IMG/VR virus record: IMGVR_UViG_2531839146_000012 | Origin: a virus | Lineage: Duplodnaviria > Heunggongvirae > Uroviricota > Caudoviricetes | DNA length: 9,403 nt | Reading direction: 5' to 3' (one strand) | Shown here: positions 1-9,403 of the stretch, piece after piece | Numbering within the stretch: the first letter of the stretch is position 1 | Layout: each line of letters starts with the position of its first letter | Program-made: the position numbers and the translations under genes | The notes under the pieces: model-generated | The model's database searches: none | What the model saw: only the letters and a program-made list of their open reading frames with translations | What the model was told of the DNA's origin: nothing

Positions 1-395
<395 letters not shown>

Positions 396-404
396 ATCAC
401 CAGT

Positions 405-449
405 AGGCGCATAACACATCCAGCGATCAAAGATGTGTTTATGCGCCTG
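405..449. other. Long inverted repeat / stem-loop between the two convergent small ORFs
   Basis: AGGCGCATAACACATC (405-420) pairs with GATGTGTTTATGCGCCT (433-449) across an 11-12 nt loop. No flanking T-run on either strand, so not a canonical intrinsic terminator. Confidence 0.4.
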
Positions 450-461
450 ATAGTGAAATTA

Positions 462-620
462 TTAAAGTCGTTTAGTTAACATCGCCATTGCTTGAGCAAT
501 AATTGCAACAGCGTCCATCTCTTCACTGGAAGCGATGCAAATGCGGTAACTAATAGCCACAATGAATACATCAATAACGAGAAAGTGAATAGTGTGAAGA
601 TGTTTTGAAAGTAAATGCAT
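462..620 (-). CDS. Small hydrophobic hypothetical protein (52 aa), below the ORF-track cutoff
   Basis: Minus-strand ATG (620-618) with GGAGG 5 nt upstream (complement of CCTCC 626-630); translation MHLLSKHLHTIHFLVIDVFIVAISYRICIASSEEMDAVAIIAQAMAMLTKRL; stop at 464-462. One predicted hydrophobic helix. Confidence 0.3.
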   Translation of the reverse strand: MHLLSKHLHTIHFLVIDVFIVAISYRICIASSEEMDAVAIIAQAMAMLTKRL

Positions 621-713
621 AACTTCCTCCGGTTTTGGGATAGGAGGATTAGAACATGCATTAAATGATGTTGCAAGAATGGCAATTTACCCTAATAGTC
701 TACTATTCACCTC

Positions 714-744
714 AATCTACGTCAACCAATATTTGATGTAGATT
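714..744. promoter_or_regulatory. Near-perfect 12-bp inverted repeat (AATCTACGTCAA-N7-TTGATGTAGATT), operator-like
   Basis: Arms at 714-725 and 733-744 with one mismatch, read directly from the sequence. Confidence 0.3.
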
Positions 745-1014
745 TAATTTTCTTTTAAAAACAATATGTTGTTATTTGTTGAATTTTGGGGTTAGGTTGT
801 TTTTTGAACGTTTTCATCAAGTGTAAAGATACGTTTAGCCTTCATAGTGAGTTCAGTTACTGTCTTTTTCTCTGAAATCGGCGCAAACGTGATCATCGCT
901 TGAGGTTGCTGCTCTTACTTCTCAAATTGTGATGGAGAACGATAAAGGTTAGAGGGCACTTTTATTTTTTTAAGCAAGTGTATAGCATAAGAATAATCTA
1001 AAAAGGGAGGTTAT

Positions 1015-1566
1015 ATGCGCAGGTCTGCATTTGTGAGGATGATGATTTTTACAACGTTGTTTGTAGGGGGAACTTCTACCGCAGTTGCTAAAAACTGCAA
1101 AAAAGGAATACCTTGTGGTAACTCGTGTATAGCTGTTGGTAAGACGTGCCGGATTGGCTCTTATGCCCCTTCATCTTATAAAAATCATTCATACTCTTAT
1201 CCTTCATCCTCTATTCGAAGCTCGCAATCAAATAATTCACGAAAAACTGAAGGAGTGAAAACGACTCCTGCTGCCAAAAATTATCTTTGCCAATACTCTA
1301 TTGCATCAATCGAAAACGGACGTTTAGGGGCATTACGTGTTCAGGGATACGCACAAGTAACTTTATATGCAGATAGCTTCAAGGCTAACAGATTAAATGG
1401 AACATATTTGATATCGCCAAAACTGAATGCTAACGGCAAGTTTATGATGGCAGATGATAAAAGCAAGGTTTATGCTTATGATTCTTGGCTATTAAATTTT
1501 GCAATAAGCGATCGTATCACAAGAACGACAGAACAATGGGATCGATGTAAGCTCAATCAAAAATAA
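1015..1566 (+). CDS. Secreted cysteine-rich hypothetical protein (183 aa) with Sec-type signal peptide
   Basis: GGAGG-containing RBS (1005-1010) before ATG 1015. N-terminus MRRSAFVRMMIFTTLFVGGTSTAVA looks like a signal peptide (basic n-region, hydrophobic core, AVA cleavage motif), followed by a 4-Cys cluster CKKGIPCGNSCIAVGKTC, a Ser/Tyr-rich linker and a C-terminal domain with two more Cys. Confidence 0.75.
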   Translation: MRRSAFVRMMIFTTLFVGGTSTAVAKNCKKGIPCGNSCIAVGKTCRIGSYAPSSYKNHSYSYPSSSIRSSQSNNSRKTEGVKTTPAAKNYLCQYSIASIENGRLGALRVQGYAQVTLYADSFKANRLNGTYLISPKLNANGKFMMADDKSKVYAYDSWLLNFAISDRITRTTEQWDRCKLNQK

Positions 1567-1584
1567 CAGTTAGAGAAGCTCTTG

Positions 1585-1641
1585 TAGAGGCATTATTGAG
1601 TTATTGGTTTTAATATTTTTGTGCCTCTATGGGCTTTTTTT
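1585..1641 (+). terminator. Putative terminator region after the secreted-protein gene
   Basis: TAGAGGCA (1585-1592) pairs with TGCCTCTA (1622-1629), followed by GGGC and a 7-T run (1635-1641). The loop is long, so the structure is non-canonical. Confidence 0.35.
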
Positions 1642-1798
1642 GCCTTTTTGCAAAGTAGGAGAGAGCACAGGAATCGTTAAAATTAATTATTGGGGTATTT
1701 AAGGTTATTTTCAGGTGGTTTAAGGGTATTAAACTTGATTTAATTGATTAAAATATAAACAGATAGTCCTGTATCTTATTGATTTATAAGGTTATTTT

Positions 1799-1855
1799 TA
1801 AATAAAGGTAAATAAAAAATAAATAGCCATAAATAGCTATAAATACATCTAAATA
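1799..1855. repeat. Six TAAATA motifs at 10-11 bp (helical) phasing
   Basis: TAAATA starts at 1799, 1809, 1820, 1830, 1840 and 1850. Confidence 0.6.
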
Positions 1856-2275
1856 CCTTTATCCCTTCCCTTATGGCTAGATTGCGAGAAGTGCTTAACG
1901 CGATTTTCAGCGCCCCCCGATCTGGAAAATCCAGAATCCCCAAATATCAGCAAGGAATTTTCTTGCGTAATCAACATCGTTTTTACCTATTAAATCATCA
2001 CACAGAAAGCCTTTCTGTAATGTCTCTCACTAAACTTTCACTAAACACGAGAATGATCGGTTTTATGTCGGATCAGATGCTAGAAACAGCACCACGTCTC
2101 ACAAGGGCTGTAAGCGATGAAACCAGTGTTTATGCGGGTGCAGGTCAAAATATGGGCCAAAATCCATTTAACATAATAATCGTAATATGCACTAAGGAAC
2201 ACATAGAACGCCTTGAATTGATGTATCAGGGGAAAAGTGATGGATTTTTTACGTAGGAGCACGAGAGGGCTTCTG

Positions 2276-2303
2276 TTGACTTTTGTGTGCTATGAAATAT
2301 AAT
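2276..2303 (+). promoter_or_regulatory. Putative sigma70 promoter firing into the repeat region
   Basis: -35 TTGACT (2276-2281), 16-bp spacer, -10 TATAAT (2298-2303). No ORF follows. Confidence 0.4.
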
Positions 2304-2337
2304 TAAAGGTTTTTTGTTTTTATCGTGTGATGTAGTG

Positions 2338-2780
2338 GATTACACAGGGGGATAGATTAAATGGTGTTCTGTTTATACAGGTTTATTTGTTAGATCAACA
2401 ATTTGGCATTTCTAAACAGATGTTTGAACGTTGCCAAATGTATTGACAACACAAGAAAAGGGCTTGCTATGCCACGCATTACACGGAATAAGGCTGTAAA
2501 AACAAAATAAATTTTAAAATTTGCACAAACGAGAAAACTCGTTCAGAAACAAGCAGAACAATTTTTAGCCAACAATTTCTGATGGTGCTCTGTAAACCGC
2601 ATTACACAAGGCTTTGCGAAAGTGATGTAAAAGTGAAGAAAGCTAACATTGCACTTTGAAGCCATTTTTCATTGGATTTTTTAGTAGGGAATTACACAGG
2701 GAATAGAGAGCATTATTCTATGATTTACACAGGGAATATAGGGGATTATGGCACACACATAGAAAGGCATTACACAGAGT
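2338..2780 (+). repeat. Dispersed direct repeats of G(C/G)ATTACAC(A/G)GG (iteron-like), six copies
   Basis: ATTACAC cores at 2339, 2478, 2601, 2691, 2769 and a TTTACAC variant at 2724, each preceded by G(G/C/A) and followed by (A/G)(G/A)G. Confidence 0.6.
2401..2439. promoter_or_regulatory. Nested imperfect palindrome ATTTGGCA...AAACA-GA-TGTTT...TGCCAAAT, operator-like
   Basis: Outer arms 2401-2408 and 2432-2439 are exact reverse complements; an inner palindrome AAACAGATGTTT lies between them. A TTGACA at 2443-2448 follows. Confidence 0.35.
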
Positions 2781-2808
2781 GAGTGCTATGTGATGATTGG
2801 TAGTAACG

Positions 2809-2843
2809 GTAGGTCACTGTGAGCTACCCCCACAGAATTCTGT
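2809..2843. repeat. Isolated copy of the 22-bp repeat core (GGTAGGTCACTGTGAGCTA) followed by CCCCC and a perfect 12-bp palindrome ACAGAATTCTGT
   Basis: 2809-2827 matches the tandem unit at 3028-3135; the palindrome at 2832-2843 is flanked by TACCCC on both sides. Confidence 0.5.
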
Positions 2844-2883
2844 TACCCCTATCAAGTCTGATACCCGATAAGTATAAATAACA

Positions 2884-2981
2884 CCTAGGAAATGATTTCC
2901 GATCTATTTAGGAAGTAACCTAGGAAGTGGTTTCCTACCTACTTAGGAAATGAGTTCCTACCTACCTAGGAAATGAGTTCC
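2884..2981. repeat. Four CCTAGG-GGAAAT-G-A(T/G)TTCC palindromic sites, the last three at 23-bp pitch
   Basis: GGAAATGATTTCC at 2888-2900 is a perfect odd-length palindrome; GGAAGTGGTTTCC at 2923-2935; GGAAATGAGTTCC at 2946-2958 and 2969-2981. Confidence 0.6.
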
Positions 2982-3006
2982 ACCAATACTATAATTAAAT
3001 AATATA

Positions 3007-3022
3007 AATAATATTCTTTATA
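3007..3022. repeat. Exact 16-bp direct repeat AATAATATTCTTTATA, left copy; right copy at 3184-3199
   Basis: Identical 16-mers at 3007-3022 and 3184-3199 bracket the 22-bp tandem array and its AT-rich flank; both continue with similar (C)TATAT sequence. Confidence 0.55.
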
Positions 3023-3027
3023 CTATA

Positions 3028-3135
3028 TAGCTCACTGTGAACTAGGGGGGGTAGTTCACTATGAGCTAGGGGGTAGGTCATAGTGAGCTAGGGGGTAGGT
3101 CATAGTGAGCTAGGGGGTAGGTCACTGTGAACTAC
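3028..3135. repeat. Five tandem 22-bp repeats (unit about TAGGTCATAGTGAGCTAGGGGG), each with a palindromic TCAC-N-GTGA core
   Basis: Units start near 3028, 3050, 3074, 3096 and 3118 with 22-bp period; the first unit is in inverted orientation (AGCTCACTGTGAACTAG). Followed by an AT-rich stretch with (TA)6 at about 3203-3214. Confidence 0.65.
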
Positions 3136-3324
3136 AATAAGACTATTAATAAAACTATATTAGATTATTAATTAGATCATAATAATAATATTCTTTATAT
3201 CTATATATATATATGATCTTTTGCCTTCCGGCGTTAGCTTCACTCTCTGGCAAGCAGCCTTACTCCGCTACCTTTCGGGCTTCGTGGCTGGCCCGTTCCG
3301 CTCACACCGAAAGCAAAGCGTTAC

Positions 3325-3366
3325 TTTCTTCGTGTAACTATCGTGGCGGTAACGCCCACGAAGAAA
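3325..3366 (+). other. Stable hairpin with GNRA-type tetraloop (GGCG-GTAA-CGCC) nested in a 9-bp outer stem
   Basis: TTTCTTCGTG (3325-3334) pairs with CACGAAGAAA (3357-3366); inner GGCGGTAACGCC at 3345-3356. Sits in a locally GC-richer segment (about 3216-3420). Confidence 0.35.
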
Positions 3367-3600
3367 TACTATTGCGCTGTGCGCAGTAAGAGTAATCACC
3401 TAACCAATCATACTGATTGCTTATGTGTTAACTCTCTCTACTCTTAATTACCCTCCTACATATAATAACTCTGTTATTCTCTGTAGTTGTGTAATTACTC
3501 GAAGAGAGAGCGGCTAAAGCTCAATTACACTCTGCTTTCCTCGTGTAATTTCACTAAGCCTCAATACAATTCCACTTCCTACTTCTGTAGTCGTGTAATT
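3330..3600 (-). repeat. Inverted copies of the ATTACAC motif (CGTGTAAT) plus a 20-bp direct repeat CT(C/T)CTGTAGT(T/C)GTGTAATT
   Basis: GTGTAAT at 3489-3495, 3543-3549 and 3593-3599; GTGTAAC variant at 3333-3339; one direct ATTACAC at 3524-3530. The 20-mers at 3479-3498 and 3582-3600 are near-identical. Confidence 0.5.
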
Positions 3601-3640
3601 GTTTTCGGTGGAAAAGCCAGAGGCGACACCGAAAGAGAAT

Positions 3641-3710
3641 TCTGATCTTATTAATCTTATCTATCTTAGTTAATCTTCTTACTTATCTTACTTTATCTAC
3701 TTTATTATTA
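3641..3710. repeat. Pyrimidine-rich cluster of TTATCT / ATCTT motifs (AGATAA on the minus strand)
   Basis: TTATCT at 3657-3662, 3683-3688 and 3693-3698, plus several ATCT variants. Confidence 0.4.
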
Positions 3711-4220
3711 ATAATAGCTTTATAAGCTCTCTGACGCAAGAAACAGCATTCAGGAAGGGAATCACCTTAGAAAAGGTGTTCTTTGCGTCATAATGTGTTT
3801 TATGAGGGATTCAGAGGTGTTTCATAACAGGAATGTATAGAGGATACTTTAGGTAATTAAAAATAAGGGGTCTAAATGCTTCTCTAACAGCATTAAGCAG
3901 GGTAGGGAATGGAAACGCATTGCCTACACATATAGGCTCACTACAGAGCTTTACAGAGCGTTTTATAAAGTGACTCTCTATCTTATATCTACCATCACCT
4001 TTTCATATACCTAACAAATACAAAATAAGCCCCTTAAATAAGCCTCTGGCGAGCTAAACAGCCATTAGATAAGGGAATGTATTGCTTTTATCAAAATCTC
4101 GTTAGAACGCGTTTTAGAGCGTTTTAGACAATAATGAAGAATAGCACTACACAGAAGAGCACGAATAGCTAAGAAAAAATGTAAGTACATGAAAAAGATC
4201 AGATTTTTTGTGAAAAGGTA

Positions 4221-4249
4221 TTGACAAATGTTTCTTTATATGTAATAAT
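4221..4249 (+). promoter_or_regulatory. Putative sigma70 promoter of the early operon
   Basis: -35 TTGACA (4221-4226), 17-bp spacer, extended -10 TGtAATAAT (4241-4249). It lies about 110 nt upstream of the first gene. Confidence 0.5.
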
Positions 4250-4359
4250 AGGTATTAGAGGGACAGAAAAACATTCTTCTCTAAATAATCAAAATCAATG
4301 CACTTTGAAGCCGTCAGGCTTGCAAGGTGTTTTTCTTTTAACTGAATAAGGAGTTTTTT

Positions 4360-4548
4360 ATGAAATGGTTTACCCCGGAGCACGTCATCTCGGCATTTAA
4401 AAAAGGTGAGCTTACACGCCATCAAGTAGTAATGAATCGTAATATGGCAAGGAGTCGAGGTTATCCAGAGCGAGCAGCTTGCTTCAATGAAGCACTCAAG
4501 ATTATTGATGAATTAAGAAAAAATGAAAAAGAATCTGAAACAGAGTAA
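4360..4548 (+). CDS. Small hypothetical protein (62 aa), first gene of the early operon
   Basis: AAGGAG RBS at 4348-4353, 6-nt spacer, ATG 4360. No family recognised. Confidence 0.6.
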   Translation: MKWFTPEHVISAFKKGELTRHQVVMNRNMARSRGYPERAACFNEALKIIDELRKNEKESETE

Positions 4549-4567
4549 AGAATAGAAGGAGAAAACT

Positions 4568-4735
4568 ATGAGCGAAACCAAGAAACCAATTCCGCGCACT
4601 TACCTACACGTTGACCCTGAAATCTTCAAGGTTTTATTTGCTGAAGCCAAGAAAAGGCAAATTATGGTCAGTGATTTGATGTTAGAAATCATTACTGAAG
4701 CAGCAGAGAACATCAAACAAAAAAAGGGTAAGTGA
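4568..4735 (+). CDS. Ribbon-helix-helix (CopG/Arc/MetJ-like) DNA-binding protein, 55 aa; below the ORF-track cutoff
   Basis: AAGGAG at 4555-4560, ATG 4568, stop TGA 4733-4735. Translation MSETKKPIPRTYLHVDPEIFKVLFAEAKKRQIMVSDLMLEIITEAAENIKQKKGK fits a beta-strand / helix / helix layout typical of RHH proteins. Confidence 0.55.
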   Translation: MSETKKPIPRTYLHVDPEIFKVLFAEAKKRQIMVSDLMLEIITEAAENIKQKKGK

Positions 4736-4786
4736 TCCTCATTCACTTTAGTAGCGCATTAAGCGTGATTTATAAGGAGATTTTTA

Positions 4787-5479
4787 ATGATTAATCAACT
4801 AACTTTTACAAAACACTATGACACGTTTGATAATGTATCAAAGATTTATTCTGATAAATTCCCTCAAGGAAAAGATTTAGATCTATTACATATTGTGCTT
4901 TATTTTCGATTCCTTAGTTATCAGGAAAACAACCTTAATTGTTATGAAAGTCACGAAACATTAGCTAAGATTTTTAAGTCTTCAGCGTCAACAATTAAAC
5001 GTAAGATAAACGATCTTAAAGAGATGGGATTATTAGAAACATCCCCACATCCTGATCCGTATATTTCATCTTTGATTTACAATGCTCTCCCTCTCACAGA
5101 TGCACATATTACTCCCCCAGGAGAATCATCACTCTCTGATCTTTCTGAGGCAGAAGAAGCACAGGAACAACCTAAAGGCCATAAACAGCCTTCTTTTGAT
5201 GTTCTTGATGATGATTGGGATGCGCCTTTACCGTGGGAGACGGAAGAAACACCTGTTTCATCAAGTGAAAAGGTAGCTAATGATAATGAGGAGGATGTGT
5301 TAGAGAATTTTGCCTCTCTTATCATCCGGGAGAAACACAGAAGAACAGGAGGATCATCATTTATAGACTTTGCAAATTCACTGGCTTATAGACACGGGCT
5401 AAAACGACCAAATGGTATTGAGGCATATTTTGCTAAGAAACATCCCAAAGTATATGAAGACTTTGATATTCCATTTTAA
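4787..5479 (+). CDS. Winged-HTH protein (HTH_36 / replisome-organizer-like N-domain), acidic linker, C-terminus ending EDFDIPF
   Basis: AAGGAG at 4774-4779, ATG 4787. The N-terminal ...CYESHETLAKIFKSSASTIKRKINDLKEMGLLE matches the usual winged-HTH pattern of phage/plasmid replication organizers. An acidic low-complexity linker (DDDWDAPLPWETEE...) follows; the last residues are YEDFDIPF, stop 5477-5479. Confidence 0.8.
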   Translation: MINQLTFTKHYDTFDNVSKIYSDKFPQGKDLDLLHIVLYFRFLSYQENNLNCYESHETLAKIFKSSASTIKRKINDLKEMGLLETSPHPDPYISSLIYNALPLTDAHITPPGESSLSDLSEAEEAQEQPKGHKQPSFDVLDDDWDAPLPWETEETPVSSSEKVANDNEEDVLENFASLIIREKHRRTGGSSFIDFANSLAYRHGLKRPNGIEAYFAKKHPKVYEDFDIPF

Positions 5480-5490
5480 TAAGGAGGGTT

Positions 5491-5769
5491 ATGATTCAAT
5501 ATTTAGTAAAAAATCAAGTAGACAGAATTCAGTGTAATGACACAGGAAAACGCATCTATGAAACACTTGCTTACCTCTATAAAGGAAAGCCAACACCGCT
5601 AAAATATAGCGATGTGTTACATCGAGCAGGGTGCTCTGAAGATGGTTTAAAATTCTGGCTGAAACAGCTATCAAATTTCGGTGTTATTGAGATTAAAGAA
5701 TTATCTTTCTCTACATTCAATCTCAAAAGACTAAATAGAGAAATAGACTTCATCTATTCCACTCTCTAA
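5491..5769 (+). CDS. Small hypothetical protein (92 aa), possible winged-HTH
   Basis: AAGGAGGG RBS at 5481-5488, ATG 5491; tightly packed after the previous gene. Confidence 0.7.
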   Translation: MIQYLVKNQVDRIQCNDTGKRIYETLAYLYKGKPTPLKYSDVLHRAGCSEDGLKFWLKQLSNFGVIEIKELSFSTFNLKRLNREIDFIYSTL

Positions 5770-5898
5770 AATCTCTCTATGTAATTAAAATATAAAAGGA
5801 AAACATTATTATGATAGTAGCTATGTATTGGTTATTGTTCTTTCTCACGTTAGAAACATATTTCGGGGTGTTTTCCTTTAAAAGAAAAGGAAAAGTAA

Positions 5899-6309
5899 AT
5901 GGCAAAAAGAAAAAACAACGTTGTTAAGAAGATCGGTGATTCAGCTTCTCTTCTAAGTAAACCTAAATCTATTCTAAGACGTAAAGACTTTAAAGAGCTA
6001 GTTACGCTCTCCAAGCAAAATAGCGCCCCTGGCGAATGGAAAACAGAGATCATAGAACATTCTCCCTCTGTGCCTTGTGGAGATGAATTTAACGCCTTAC
6101 AAGAAATCTTATCTTCAACACCTGGCGTATTCTGGAAACCTAGAAAAAGAAAAGAGTATATTGTTGATAGCTCTGATTTACGCAAATACCAGATTTTAGG
6201 ATTTGAAGACTACAACCACTACGTCGGTTATCTCGCCACAAATGGCCTAAATAATTTAGTTCCTGAATTCCAAATTTTAGATAATGCAGATCACTATGGA
6301 GACTTTTAA
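5899..6309 (+). CDS. Hypothetical protein (136 aa) with Lys/Arg-rich N-terminus, ending ...HYGDF
   Basis: Purine-rich RBS (AAAGGAAAAG) before ATG 5899. N-terminus MAKRKNNVVKKIGDSASLLSKPKSILRRKDFKEL. Confidence 0.65.
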   Translation: MAKRKNNVVKKIGDSASLLSKPKSILRRKDFKELVTLSKQNSAPGEWKTEIIEHSPSVPCGDEFNALQEILSSTPGVFWKPRKRKEYIVDSSDLRKYQILGFEDYNHYVGYLATNGLNNLVPEFQILDNADHYGDF

Positions 6310-6310
6310 T

Positions 6311-6649
6311 ATGAACAAAAACACGTATGACACAATTTACTCACTAATTAATTATTATGAGGATGATTACCTCCTGCCTTTAAACCGCGCTGAACTTGAA
6401 GCATACAAAGAAAACACGCCAGCGGCACTAAATGAGGCGTTTAAACACTGGGATTTAGCTGTGAATGCCTTTGAGCACCTCTCTAAGCGTGTAGAGATGC
6501 TCTGTAAGCGTGAGAACGCATATCTAACAGCGGATCAGCTATTTGAGCTATCAAACTGGATAGAAGGTATTGAATCGGACGTTCGCTATGTGGGAGATGG
6601 CCTTGTCGAACTAGCTCAACGCTTAGGCGCTACTATCACAGAAGAATAA
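6311..6649 (+). CDS. Acidic hypothetical protein (112 aa)
   Basis: GGAG at 6298-6301 then ATG 6311. The track start at 6284 would overlap the upstream gene and lacks an RBS. About 21 Asp/Glu versus 10 Lys/Arg by count. Confidence 0.7.
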   Translation: MNKNTYDTIYSLINYYEDDYLLPLNRAELEAYKENTPAALNEAFKHWDLAVNAFEHLSKRVEMLCKRENAYLTADQLFELSNWIEGIESDVRYVGDGLVELAQRLGATITEE

Positions 6650-6678
6650 AAAAAGCAACAAAAAAGTTGTAAAATATC

Positions 6679-6707
6679 TTGACATTTCATATATTGTATG
6701 TTAATAT
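6679..6707 (+). promoter_or_regulatory. Strong sigma70-like promoter ahead of the late genes
   Basis: -35 TTGACA (6679-6684), 17-bp spacer, -10 TAATAT (6702-6707). Confidence 0.6.
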
Positions 6708-6714
6708 AATTATA

Positions 6715-6932
6715 TAGGGTGATTATTTTTCCTTTATTGGTTCGATATTAAAAATTCTTCTTGTCGTTAAAGGGGAGTAAAATCTCCGCTCCCCGCTTCT
6801 CCTCCTTAAGTAATACTGTGTCATTATTACCTCTTTCCTTTGTTATGCATACATCTTGGAGTGTGCATAACATAGGGTAATTACATAGGTACAAGTTAAT
6901 AAAAGGCGGCTTTAAATGCTGCCTTTTATTTT
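6715..6932 (+). ncRNA. Candidate roughly 220-nt leader / small RNA from the promoter to the intrinsic terminator; no ORF
   Basis: Promoter at 6679-6707 and terminator at 6901-6932 with no ORF over 11 codons between them. Alternative hairpins GGGGAG...CTCC...CTCCCC (6772-6794) and a 9-bp stem TGTTATGCA / TGCATAACA (6841-6849 / 6865-6873). Confidence 0.35.
6901..6932 (+). terminator. Rho-independent terminator
   Basis: Stem AAGGCGGC (6903-6910) / GCTGCCTT (6918-6925, one G-U pair), loop TTTAAAT, then TTATTTT. Confidence 0.6.
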
Positions 6933-6994
6933 GCCCGTTATGCAACTTAAAAGTTGTATTTCTTACTTTAAACAAGGTAACAAGGTTTATATAA

Positions 6995-7207
6995 ATGTTG
7001 TTCTTAAATGATAAAGAGCAAATCATCAAGTATCGCGATGAAATGCTAAAGATCAATCCACAAATTACCGAAATGGTAGCTAAATACGCTGGGTGTTCTG
7101 TCGAGGAAGTAGAAAGATGTGTTGAAAAATATTTTTCTCCTTCTTCTCCGTCTACACCTTCCCTTAATGAATTAATCAAATTAAAAGCTAAGGAGATTAC
7201 TAAATGA
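6995..7207 (+). CDS. Small hypothetical protein (70 aa), first late gene
   Basis: ATG 6995 with a weak AAGG RBS; its stop overlaps the next start (ATGA at 7204-7207), suggesting translational coupling. Confidence 0.5.
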   Translation: MLFLNDKEQIIKYRDEMLKINPQITEMVAKYAGCSVEEVERCVEKYFSPSSPSTPSLNELIKLKAKEITK

Positions 7208-7566
7208 TTATTGATTTAGACACTCTGTTTCCAGTTCGAAAGACTTTCACAGATATTGTAAGTTATTGTACTGATCCGTTTGCCTCTGTAGAAAGCAAGG
7301 TTTTTGCTTCTCTTCCTGCTGATGTTGAGTGCGGAGACTTGATCACCAGCACTGGCGCTAAATATGAATCAGGAGATGATATCTATGTTGTTATGAGTGA
7401 ATTTGTAACGGCTGGAGCAAACAAGCCTGTAGATGTGCTACGTAGCAATGCTGGGCTTGTATGCATCAAAGCTGATGCCCTGAATGCTGTAAGTGAAGCA
7501 GCAAAAGCAGCATTAATTAAAAAAGGCTTTCAGCTTGAAGGGTTCCATTCTGTTTTCACTTCTTAA
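7204..7566 (+). CDS. Hypothetical protein (120 aa) immediately upstream of the capsid homolog; possible head accessory (decoration or scaffold-like), unproven
   Basis: AAGGAG at 7191-7196, ATG 7204. The accessory-protein role is suggested by position only. Confidence 0.7.
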   Translation: MIIDLDTLFPVRKTFTDIVSYCTDPFASVESKVFASLPADVECGDLITSTGAKYESGDDIYVVMSEFVTAGANKPVDVLRSNAGLVCIKADALNAVSEAAKAALIKKGFQLEGFHSVFTS

Positions 7567-7584
7567 TAAAAGGAATAATAATAA

Positions 7585-8613
7585 ATGATTCTAGGTAATG
7601 ATTACGTTGATTTAGCTCCTCTGTTCTCTGCGCATAGCACTAGAAATTATCTGCTTTCTACTCTTGATTTTACGGATTCTGTAGGGGTTACATCTCATAA
7701 AGTGGCTGTTAGCCAACTGGTGGAAACTAACGAATCTCTGTTCAACAAAGAAACCTCTCGTTTCTCTTCTGAACATAACGTGACTAAGCGTGAACAAGGT
7801 AAAGAATATCTGATTGAAATCCCGTACTTTTTAAGGGAAGACCTGATCAAACCGCAGGACGTGCAAGGCAAACGTAAACCTGGCACTGATTTTCAGGAAA
7901 CACTCACTGATATTTATGCTGACTATGTTGCTAAACACAATGTTGCATTCCAGCGTACAAAAGAGAGCGTGTTGGCGGCTTCTTTGTTCTCTGGCAAAAC
8001 TTACACGCCTAAAACTGATGATGTTCTTATCGAATGGGGCAAGCTGTTTAACGTATCAGCTATGAAAGCCACTGTGAACGCTTCCAGCACTGACACCACG
8101 AAGATTTTTAAAGAATTTGATCAGATTGCTACTGACATTATCGAGAAAGCACAAAGCCAGGCGGCTGCTGTAGAGCGTATTGTTGTTTTCTGTAAGCCGG
8201 AAGCCTTCTCTGCAATTCGATTCTCTGCTGGTATGGCAAACGCATTCCAGTATGTAAGCCCACTGGAAGAGGGGAACGTTGTGTATCAGCGTCGTGACCT
8301 GCTGCCAGGGGTGACAGCGTTCACTATTCCAGGAACTAACATTGATGTTATTAAACTGGTAGATCCGCTACACCTGGCACATATGACCGCAGACGCTGTA
8401 GCGATTCCGAAGTTTGCTAAAGGCTCTAACGTATATCAGAACATCTACGGGGCTGCTTCCAGCACTTTTGAACTGATTAATGCCGATCCTACTGAGGTCT
8501 ATAGCTACAGCTATGAATCTTCTCGTGGTGATGCTGTGAACGTTGTTACAGAGAATAGCCAGATGGTTGTTAACCACGGTGTAGGCTTCTCCGTTCAAAT
8601 CACTGTTAAATAA
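7585..8613 (+). CDS. Putative phage major capsid protein, T7 gp10-like (342 aa)
   Basis: AAAAGGA RBS, ATG 7585. By eye, the segment AVERIVVFCKPEAFSAIRFSAGMANAFQYVSPLEEGNV aligns with T7 gp10 ...ADRVFYCDPDSYSAILAALMPNAANYAALIDPEKGSI (shared R, C-x-P, SAI, M-x-NA-x-x-Y, P-x-E-x-G) at a similar position in a protein of near-identical length (342 vs 345 aa; T7 sequence from memory). Followed by a strong terminator. Confidence 0.6.
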   Translation: MILGNDYVDLAPLFSAHSTRNYLLSTLDFTDSVGVTSHKVAVSQLVETNESLFNKETSRFSSEHNVTKREQGKEYLIEIPYFLREDLIKPQDVQGKRKPGTDFQETLTDIYADYVAKHNVAFQRTKESVLAASLFSGKTYTPKTDDVLIEWGKLFNVSAMKATVNASSTDTTKIFKEFDQIATDIIEKAQSQAAAVERIVVFCKPEAFSAIRFSAGMANAFQYVSPLEEGNVVYQRRDLLPGVTAFTIPGTNIDVIKLVDPLHLAHMTADAVAIPKFAKGSNVYQNIYGAASSTFELINADPTEVYSYSYESSRGDAVNVVTENSQMVVNHGVGFSVQITVK

Positions 8614-8630
8614 TATTTAACGTGTAATAG

Positions 8631-8664
8631 AGGCGTGGCGTGTATTCACGCTTCGCCTTTTTTT
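8631..8664 (+). terminator. Rho-independent terminator after the capsid-like gene
   Basis: AGGCG-TG-GCGTG / loop TATT / CACGC-TT-CGCCT, followed by a 7-T run (8658-8664). Confidence 0.7.
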
Positions 8665-8698
8665 ATTTATTTTTTAAATTTTGAGAGGTGATTAAAAT

Positions 8699-8902
8699 AT
8701 GGAAGTGATTCTGAAATCAAAAAATGGTGTACACGTACATTTAGATGCTAATGATTCTAGAGGATTGTTAAATCTGAAATATCTATGTTCTCTCCTAGAT
8801 GTTCCATATGAAGGAGTAAAAGCCCGTATGTTCAGACTAAACGAGAGTATTGATCAAGCTCTACACCATTTCTTAAGCAAAGAAGGTGATAAAAATGATT
8901 AA
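8699..8902 (+). CDS. Small hypothetical protein (67 aa)
   Basis: AGAGG RBS, ATG 8699, stop 8900-8902. Confidence 0.5.
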   Translation: MEVILKSKNGVHVHLDANDSRGLLNLKYLCSLLDVPYEGVKARMFRLNESIDQALHHFLSKEGDKND

Positions 8903-8916
8903 TAAGGGGATTTTAA

Positions 8917-9183
8917 ATGTTAGAAATTAACACTTCTAAAATTAAGAACACAGTTACATTTAGTGTAGATAAAGACAGCTTGAAAAAAGCGAAAGACTCT
9001 ATTACAGGCTTAAAGGAATTCGCAGAAAACATCAAGCCAGCTAAATTAAGGTTTGATAATGTCACTAAAGGCTATAAGAAAGCACAAAGTGAAGTAGATA
9101 AGATTACTAAAAAGCAAGCCCAGGCTGATAAAGCTAATGCTAAAGCACAATTAGCCGCTCAACGTGTAGTTGCAAGAGGGTAA
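8917..9183 (+). pseudogene. Lys/Ala/Gln-rich (coiled-coil-like) protein gene truncated by the IS1 insertion
   Basis: AAGGGGA RBS, ATG 8917. The frame runs into the IS1 terminal inverted repeat starting at 9179, and the stop TAA (9181-9183) is supplied by the IS1 end GGTAATGAC. Translation ends ...AQLAAQRVVARG. Confidence 0.5.
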
Positions 9184-9403
9184 TGACTCCAACTTATTGA
9201 TAGTGTTTTATGTTCAGATAATGCCCGATGACTTTGTCATGCAGCTCCACCGATTTTGAGAACGACAGCGACTTCCGTCCCAGCCGTGCCAGGTGCTGCC
9301 TCAGATTCAGGTTATGCCGCTCAATTCGCTGCGTATATCGCTTGCTGATTACGTGCAGCTTTCCCTTCAGGCGGGATTCATACAGCGGCCAGCCATCCGT
9401 CAT
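9179..9403 (-). mobile_element. IS1 right end (partial; continues beyond the window)
   Basis: 9179 onward reads GGTAATGACTCCAACTTATTGATAGTGTTTTATGTTCAG..., the reverse complement of the canonical IS1 right terminus including the GGTAATGACTCCAACTTATTGAT inverted repeat. Confidence 0.9.
9194..9403 (-). CDS. insB: IS1 transposase InsB, C-terminal fragment
   Basis: Track [72 protein letters not shown] is the recognisable C-terminus of IS1 InsB; stop at 9196-9194. Confidence 0.9.

Follow-up and report, generated by a model that had tools for sequence, protein, structure and literature searches.

An IS1 element splits a tape-measure-like gene of an Escherichia coli integrative island

At the right-hand end of the DNA analysed here (the window, 9,403 nucleotides in full) an open reading frame of 88 codons (8917–9183) runs into an IS1 element, which raises the question of whether a longer gene has been interrupted at this point and, if so, whether the island that carries it has been truncated as well. 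The window coincides with a complete contig, ADWQ01000066.1 of assembly GCA_000179075.1, which breaks inside a multicopy insertion sequence at both of its ends. The answer that we favour, and hold with high confidence, is a single simple insertion of IS1 (768 bp) in a gene of 609 codons, with the rest of the island kept.

The boundary between gene and element was read directly from positions 9160–9190, where CAACGTGTAGTTGCAAGAG is joined to GGTAATGACTC. The 5' fragment of the gene (8917–9178, + strand) comprises codons 1–87 and the first base of codon 88, and a Shine–Dalgarno-like motif, AAGGGG (8904–8909, + strand), was read directly 7 nt before the ATG at 8917. No stop codon occurs upstream of the junction. 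The frame enters the right inverted repeat of IS1 at 9179, with codon 88 (GGG, 9178–9180) made up of one base of the gene and two of IS1, and is closed by the TAA at 9181–9183 (+ strand), which consists of bases 3–5 of the element. The proposal of the earlier note that IS1 lies inside a gene, which takes its stop codon from the inverted repeat, is therefore borne out. A stop at this position is not in itself remarkable, since from either end of IS1 every frame stops within 27 codons, one frame in three using the TAA at 9181–9183. The product had also been described as rich in Lys, Ala and Gln; by direct count its 88 residues include 17 Lys and ~13 Ala, but with 5 Gln it is only modestly rich in the last.

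The IS1 sequence in the window (9179–9403, − strand) is the right end of an IS1A-like element, within which the contig ends. All 225 nt are 100% identical to the right end of the 768-bp IS1A of E. coli NT1F31, the terminal inverted repeat GGTAATGACTCCAACTTATTGAT (9179–9201) matches that of the same copy, and the 3' part of insB' (9194–9403, − strand) encodes the C-terminal 69 amino acids of the transposase (PF03400 DDE_Tnp_IS1, E=1e-36). Matches to IS1 in E. coli genomes number thousands in a nucleotide search. The opposite end of an IS1 is found on a second contig of the same assembly, ADWQ01000027.1, which starts inside the element; its left terminus, ...GGCAGCATCACC, occupies positions 378–389 of that contig and agrees with the 768-bp IS1 of NT1F31, and the InsA zinc-ribbon domain (PF03811 Zn_ribbon_InsA) was found at the equivalent left-end position in L008. 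The terminal inverted repeats of ~23 bp that characterise IS1 (GGTAATGAC... and GGTGATGCTGCC...) are present. Together the 225 nt of the window and the 389 nt of ADWQ01000027.1 make 614 of the 768 nt of the element visible, the central ~154 nt being unassembled.

The uninterrupted form of the gene is seen in E. coli MB06234. In a megablast search of complete E. coli genomes MB06234 matched the window with 100% identity up to 9178, and has no IS1 there; positions 8917–9178 correspond, again with 100% nucleotide identity, to 12318–12579 of the MB06234 locus (L001), the start of the gene for the 609-residue protein WP_000890063.1. The window has ...GTAGTTGCAAGAG followed by GGTAATGAC where the MB06234 gene has ...GTTGCAAGAG followed by AACAAAAAGCC and continues. 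The intact reading frame is 1830 nt (609 amino acids), with 522 further codons beyond the fragment in the window. All 120 homologues listed are between 602 and 616 residues in length, with the close ones at 608–616, and none ends at residue 88, as intact homologues would if the gene naturally stopped here. The original gene was longer, as had been claimed, the window keeping residues 1–87. The gene is present in 485 of 5,426 complete E. coli genomes, on the chromosome every time, and is covered to at least 80% in 298. A divergent tape-measure-like gene, with 72–78% nucleotide identity over positions ~163–1530, was seen in ~166 complete genomes; this second version suggests that the island family may comprise at least two sub-lineages.

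The remainder of the interrupted gene lies on ADWQ01000027.1, where IS1 runs into it as ...GGCAGCATCACC followed by GTTGCAAGAG and then AACAAAAAGCC. After the element, therefore, comes a second copy of GTTGCAAGAG, then codons 88–609, a gene for a Dit-like protein, an integrase gene and attR. The two copies of GTTGCAAGAG, at 9169–9178 of the window and 390–399 of ADWQ01000027.1, form a 10-bp target-site duplication, which is the longest direct repeat common to both flanks of IS1. A duplication had been predicted at the other IS1 end and was found there, although 8–9 bp had been expected. When window 8917–9178 was joined to ADWQ01000027.1 minus one 10-bp copy, the result was a gene of 1830 nt and 609 codons with zero internal stops, differing from the MB06234 allele by 31 nucleotides and 9 amino acids. 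Removal of 8, 9 or 11 bp instead gave early stops, the frame being restored by 10 bp only; a duplication of 9 bp was accordingly rejected, as reconstruction on that basis gave 67 stops and the actual repeat is 10 bp. Duplications of 8–10 bp are on record for IS1 in a passage of PMC3031569 (citing Iida & Hiestand-Nauer, 1986), so that while 9 bp is usual the 10 bp here is a documented minority outcome.

The IS1 copy of NT1F31 served as a control, being 768 bp in length with a 9-bp duplication. That copy (L002, 12002–12769) is an independent insertion, flanked by CAGACGCTG, and interrupts the gene for the major capsid protein in a related island at tRNA-Gly. The site in the window lies in an AT-rich island (37% GC overall, 43% in the 100 bp around the site), and given the independent insertion in NT1F31 this AT-rich island family has been struck by IS1 more than once.

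That the assembly has the remainder, through attR, on a different contig contradicts the claim of the earlier note that the island is truncated on the IS1 side; the apparent truncation is an assembly break, because the short-read assembly broke in multicopy IS1. Positions 390–4243 of ADWQ01000027.1 are 97.8% identical to 12570–16424 of the MB06234 locus, the rest of the MB06234 island. A product of 497 amino acids (P0136), which corresponds exactly to residues M113–609, is encoded on ADWQ01000027.1, in GCA_000179135.1 and in SRR088925, the last of which carries the left junction as well, and is found in a cluster of 47 near-identical proteins. A protein search with the expected 3' remainder preceded by a leader encoded in IS1 yielded no truncated cluster representative, and a scan of contigs from species representatives, to which the source assembly does not belong, gave no hit to the expected right junction (the left end of IS1, 6–12 nt, then the continuing gene).

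These observations bear on four other ways of accounting for the junction. Deletion of the right-hand part of the island through IS1 activity, with loss of the 3' part of the gene and of the genes downstream, would explain why the window holds nothing past the IS1 end and stops at 9403; the window is, however, a whole contig ending in a repeat, and the parts supposedly lost, from the 3' part of the gene past the Dit-like gene and the integrase to attR, abut the left end of IS1 on ADWQ01000027.1. The 10-bp duplication is moreover perfect, and a deletion would leave none; we rate this explanation as very improbable. It would be stranger still if the gene were naturally 88 codons long and IS1 merely adjoined it. 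Taken by itself the window does offer a clean reading frame, complete with ribosome-binding site and stop, and nothing more, but that stop codon lies within IS1, the IS-free allele, identical to 9178, runs on for 522 codons, and 120 of 120 listed homologues have 602–616 residues; we consider this extremely unlikely.

Contig ends at repeats are prone to error, and the junction might in principle be a chimera of assembly. Against this, the NCBI assembly encodes the same 88-residue chimeric product as do Logan assemblies made independently from SRR089444, SRR088925 and SRR088909; these three also break at IS1, and the matching right junction was found in three assemblies. The recurrence of the identical chimeric product in independent assemblies indicates that the junction is real, and an artefact is hardly credible. 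In a megablast search with window 8600–9403 the left junction was absent from the complete E. coli genomes searched. The alternative to which we would give a little more room, while still regarding it as unlikely, is that the two junctions bound a larger IS1 structure, either a composite transposon or a pair of IS1 copies enclosing other DNA. Of the 768 nt of the element 614 are seen, on two contigs, with the centre unassembled, and the junctions and the duplication would look no different for a composite IS1 transposon; yet the visible ends are oriented as in one element and between them make up 80% of a single IS1, and short-read assemblies ordinarily break at single IS1 copies.

On the preferred reading, a single simple insertion, one IS1A-like element transposed into codons 85–88 in the orientation opposite to that of the gene and duplicated 10 bp of the target. 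The upstream fragment now encodes a stub of 88 residues (87 native codons, a chimeric Gly and the TAA of IS1), while the other 522 codons and what follows them (the Dit-like/tube-initiator gene, integrase and attR) are present past the left end of the element. In the frame of the 3' fragment a stop lies 15 nt within IS1, and the earliest in-frame ATG, that of M113, has no Shine–Dalgarno motif. With an in-frame stop in IS1 and M113 lacking a ribosome-binding site, the full-length protein of 609 residues would be predicted to be no longer made. IS1 insertions exert polarity on downstream genes, and expression of the Dit-like gene is by analogy probably lowered. The insertion would seem to have arisen once and then to have been inherited in a small clonal group, since several related assemblies and runs have identical junctions.

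The event is a textbook case of insertional inactivation by IS1: it resembles inactivation by IS1A/IS1R-type elements in Enterobacteriaceae in its inverted repeats, transposase fragments, short duplication and premature stop supplied by the end of the element. As a disruption it is routine, and it shows that contig breaks at repeats can mimic truncated islands. It also corrects the annotation, in that two 'hypothetical proteins' of 88 and 497 residues on two contigs are halves of one gene of 609 codons, and it makes the IS1 lineage a natural knockout of a tape-measure homologue that can be compared with IS-free islands.

The identity of the gene was approached through its protein. The 609-residue product matches PHROG 16051, 'tail length tape measure protein', with E=2.7e-53, and the stub by itself matches positions 1–69 of the same family (E=1.1e-16); no Pfam match was found for the 609-residue protein. 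By tblastn, annotated tape measure proteins in 134 phage records are matched, the best with E=8e-33. The closest phage relatives, at 32–38% identity, are the tape measure proteins of Stephanstirmvirinae, virulent myophages of E. coli with genomes of ~145–150 kb, and over residues 1–42 the identity to the N-terminus of the tape measure protein of phage muut reaches 71%. In MB06234 the gene is followed directly by one for a Dit-like protein of 237 amino acids (PF21821, E=3.4e-29), annotated there as 'phage baseplate protein', and then by a tyrosine integrase. In phage PaulScherrer the tape measure gene precedes one for a 'tail tube initiator', also of 237 residues, with which the Dit-like protein shares 60% identity (E=3e-93). 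Judged by these similarities the gene is a tape-measure homologue and the last but one in the structural module. It had been taken for the last late gene, which it is not, as the Dit-like/tail-tube-initiator gene comes after it. The order of tape measure followed by tube initiator is shared with the Stephanstirmvirinae (Justusliebigvirus/Phapecoctavirus; PaulScherrer bas60_0018, muut gp017), whose tape measure proteins are ~660 residues long against 609 in the island. Unlike in those phages, the homologue here sits on an island of ~12–13 kb without sheath, tube, baseplate, portal or terminase genes. An upstream reading frame of 67 codons was considered as a tail chaperone and rejected, as it has no similarity to the frame at the same position in PaulScherrer.

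The left end of the window is likewise an insertion sequence, which causes the other contig break. Positions 1–214 (+ strand) are the right end of IS100kyp, an IS21-family element, with the terminus ...CGTCGTTGACA at 214, and contain the 3' end of istB (3–149, + strand; PF01695 IstB_IS21, E=1.9e-15); the identity to annotated copies of IS100kyp is 97–99%. An IS21-family end had been proposed on this side, and the domain and the identity both support it. Three IS100 copies diverge right after ...GTTGACA at 214, the terminus ending ...CA, and the IS-free MB06234 island matches the window from 215. Some IS100 matches reach 225–239, which was dismissed as run-on of the alignment, as independent copies diverge after 214. 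Seen from the right junction alone, IS100kyp lies 577 bp inside attL in MB06234 coordinates; it is 28 bp upstream of an open reading frame of 50 codons (243–395). The suggestion that insertion sequences have left the element 'trapped or inactivated' is right as far as the tape-measure-like gene is concerned, which is inactivated, but both integrase and attR have remained intact, and the other reading frames are full-length: besides the insertion sequences and the interrupted gene, the island reading frames in the window all have full-length counterparts in MB06234.

The island so reconstructed extends over window 215–9178 and ADWQ01000027.1 390–4234, is ~12–13 kb in length and includes an integrase; in MB06234 it lies at tRNA-Thr (thrW), next to tRNA-Thr/proA. 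A 20-bp att repeat, ACTCCTATTATCGGCACCAT, at position 4215 of ADWQ01000027.1 matches the 3' end of tRNA-Thr. Right after attR, at 4399–11967 of this contig, is a P4-type element with a P4-like integrase, AlpA, AntA, Phage_ASH and a Toprim/DUF927 primase, so that two integrative elements stand in tandem at one att site.

The island itself is of more interest than the insertion of IS1 into it. Its structural homologues are only three, a lambda-E-type capsid protein (PF03864), the tape measure and the tube initiator/Dit, and no terminase, portal, protease, sheath, tube or baseplate gene was found among its reading frames. It also encodes a helix-turn-helix (HTH) protein resembling replication initiators. 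A reading frame of 55 codons (4568–4735) has a product with 100% identity to gp095 of Justusliebigvirus muut, and the DNA around it (window 4556–4797, 242 bp) has 99.6% identity to muut 81027–81268. The next reading frame, for an HTH/rep-like protein of 230 residues, has a weak similarity (26%) to gp094, the adjoining gene of the phage; the 55- and 230-codon pair is thus syntenic with muut, as both resemble the adjacent gp095 and gp094. Within a gene-poor stretch of ~2.7 kb, conserved at 93–96% in two other islands, about five copies of the 22-bp repeat GGGGGTAGGTCAYWGTGAGCTA are found (3026–3135, with one at 2808), together with a second set of repeats (2883–2972) and flanking AT-rich tracts (2992–3022 and 3164–3214). 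On this repeat architecture window 2808–3214 is a candidate iteron-type origin of replication. With Rfam at the gathering threshold no RNA family was found in the window.

Taken together, the island is plausibly a satellite of virulent Stephanstirmvirinae phages, or an element that interferes with their assembly. In its fuller form, that E. coli has a seemingly undescribed family of satellite or assembly-interfering islands which exploit virulent Stephanstirmvirinae (phi92/rV5-like), are carried by ~9% of complete genomes and encode capsid, tape-measure and tube-initiator homologues of their own along with an early gene 100% identical to one of a phage, the proposal is tentative, and we would rate its chances at somewhat below even. 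For Phapecoctavirus, Justusliebigvirus, phi92 and rV5 no account of a satellite was found in the open-access literature, which is a weak negative, and a paper on 'tail assembly interference' (Tai) contained nothing relevant on tape measure or Dit decoys. Were the proposal correct, the IS1 lineage would be a ready-made knockout of the tape measure gene of a satellite.

Two known systems offer parallels. Like PLE, the satellite of ICP1 in Vibrio cholerae, and like the capsid-forming PICIs (cf-PICIs), the island is small, with an integrase, its own replication module (a frame resembling rep initiators, and iterons) and few structural homologues, and, as with these, near-identical DNA is common to the island and a virulent phage lineage, dependence on a helper being putative here. 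The likeness to PLE is one of organisation, with no sequence relationship seen. The cf-PICIs have a full head module (capsid, portal, protease, head–tail connectors and TerS), whereas the island has a capsid gene and two tail genes; assignment to the cf-PICIs was rejected, as only the PF03864 capsid is recognisable and there are no matches to portal, protease or terminase. A P4-like satellite was likewise rejected, no P4 alpha primase/helicase, Psu/Sid/Delta or AlpA being found within the island.

Two further segments of the window were noted. Positions 388–1633 form a segment of ~1.25 kb that is not in the MB06234 island, which has 120 bp instead; it carries a reading frame of 183 codons (1015–1566) whose product has a hydrophobic, signal-peptide-like N-terminus and matches only PHROGs of unknown function (phrog_2578 and phrog_14768), and the segment looks like a variable slot for cargo. 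A stretch of 40 bp at 1882–1921 is 95% identical to a gene-free part of the muut genome (64301–64340), with similar short matches in many phages of the Stephanstirmvirinae, and may be a regulatory, origin or packaging signal that island and phages have in common.
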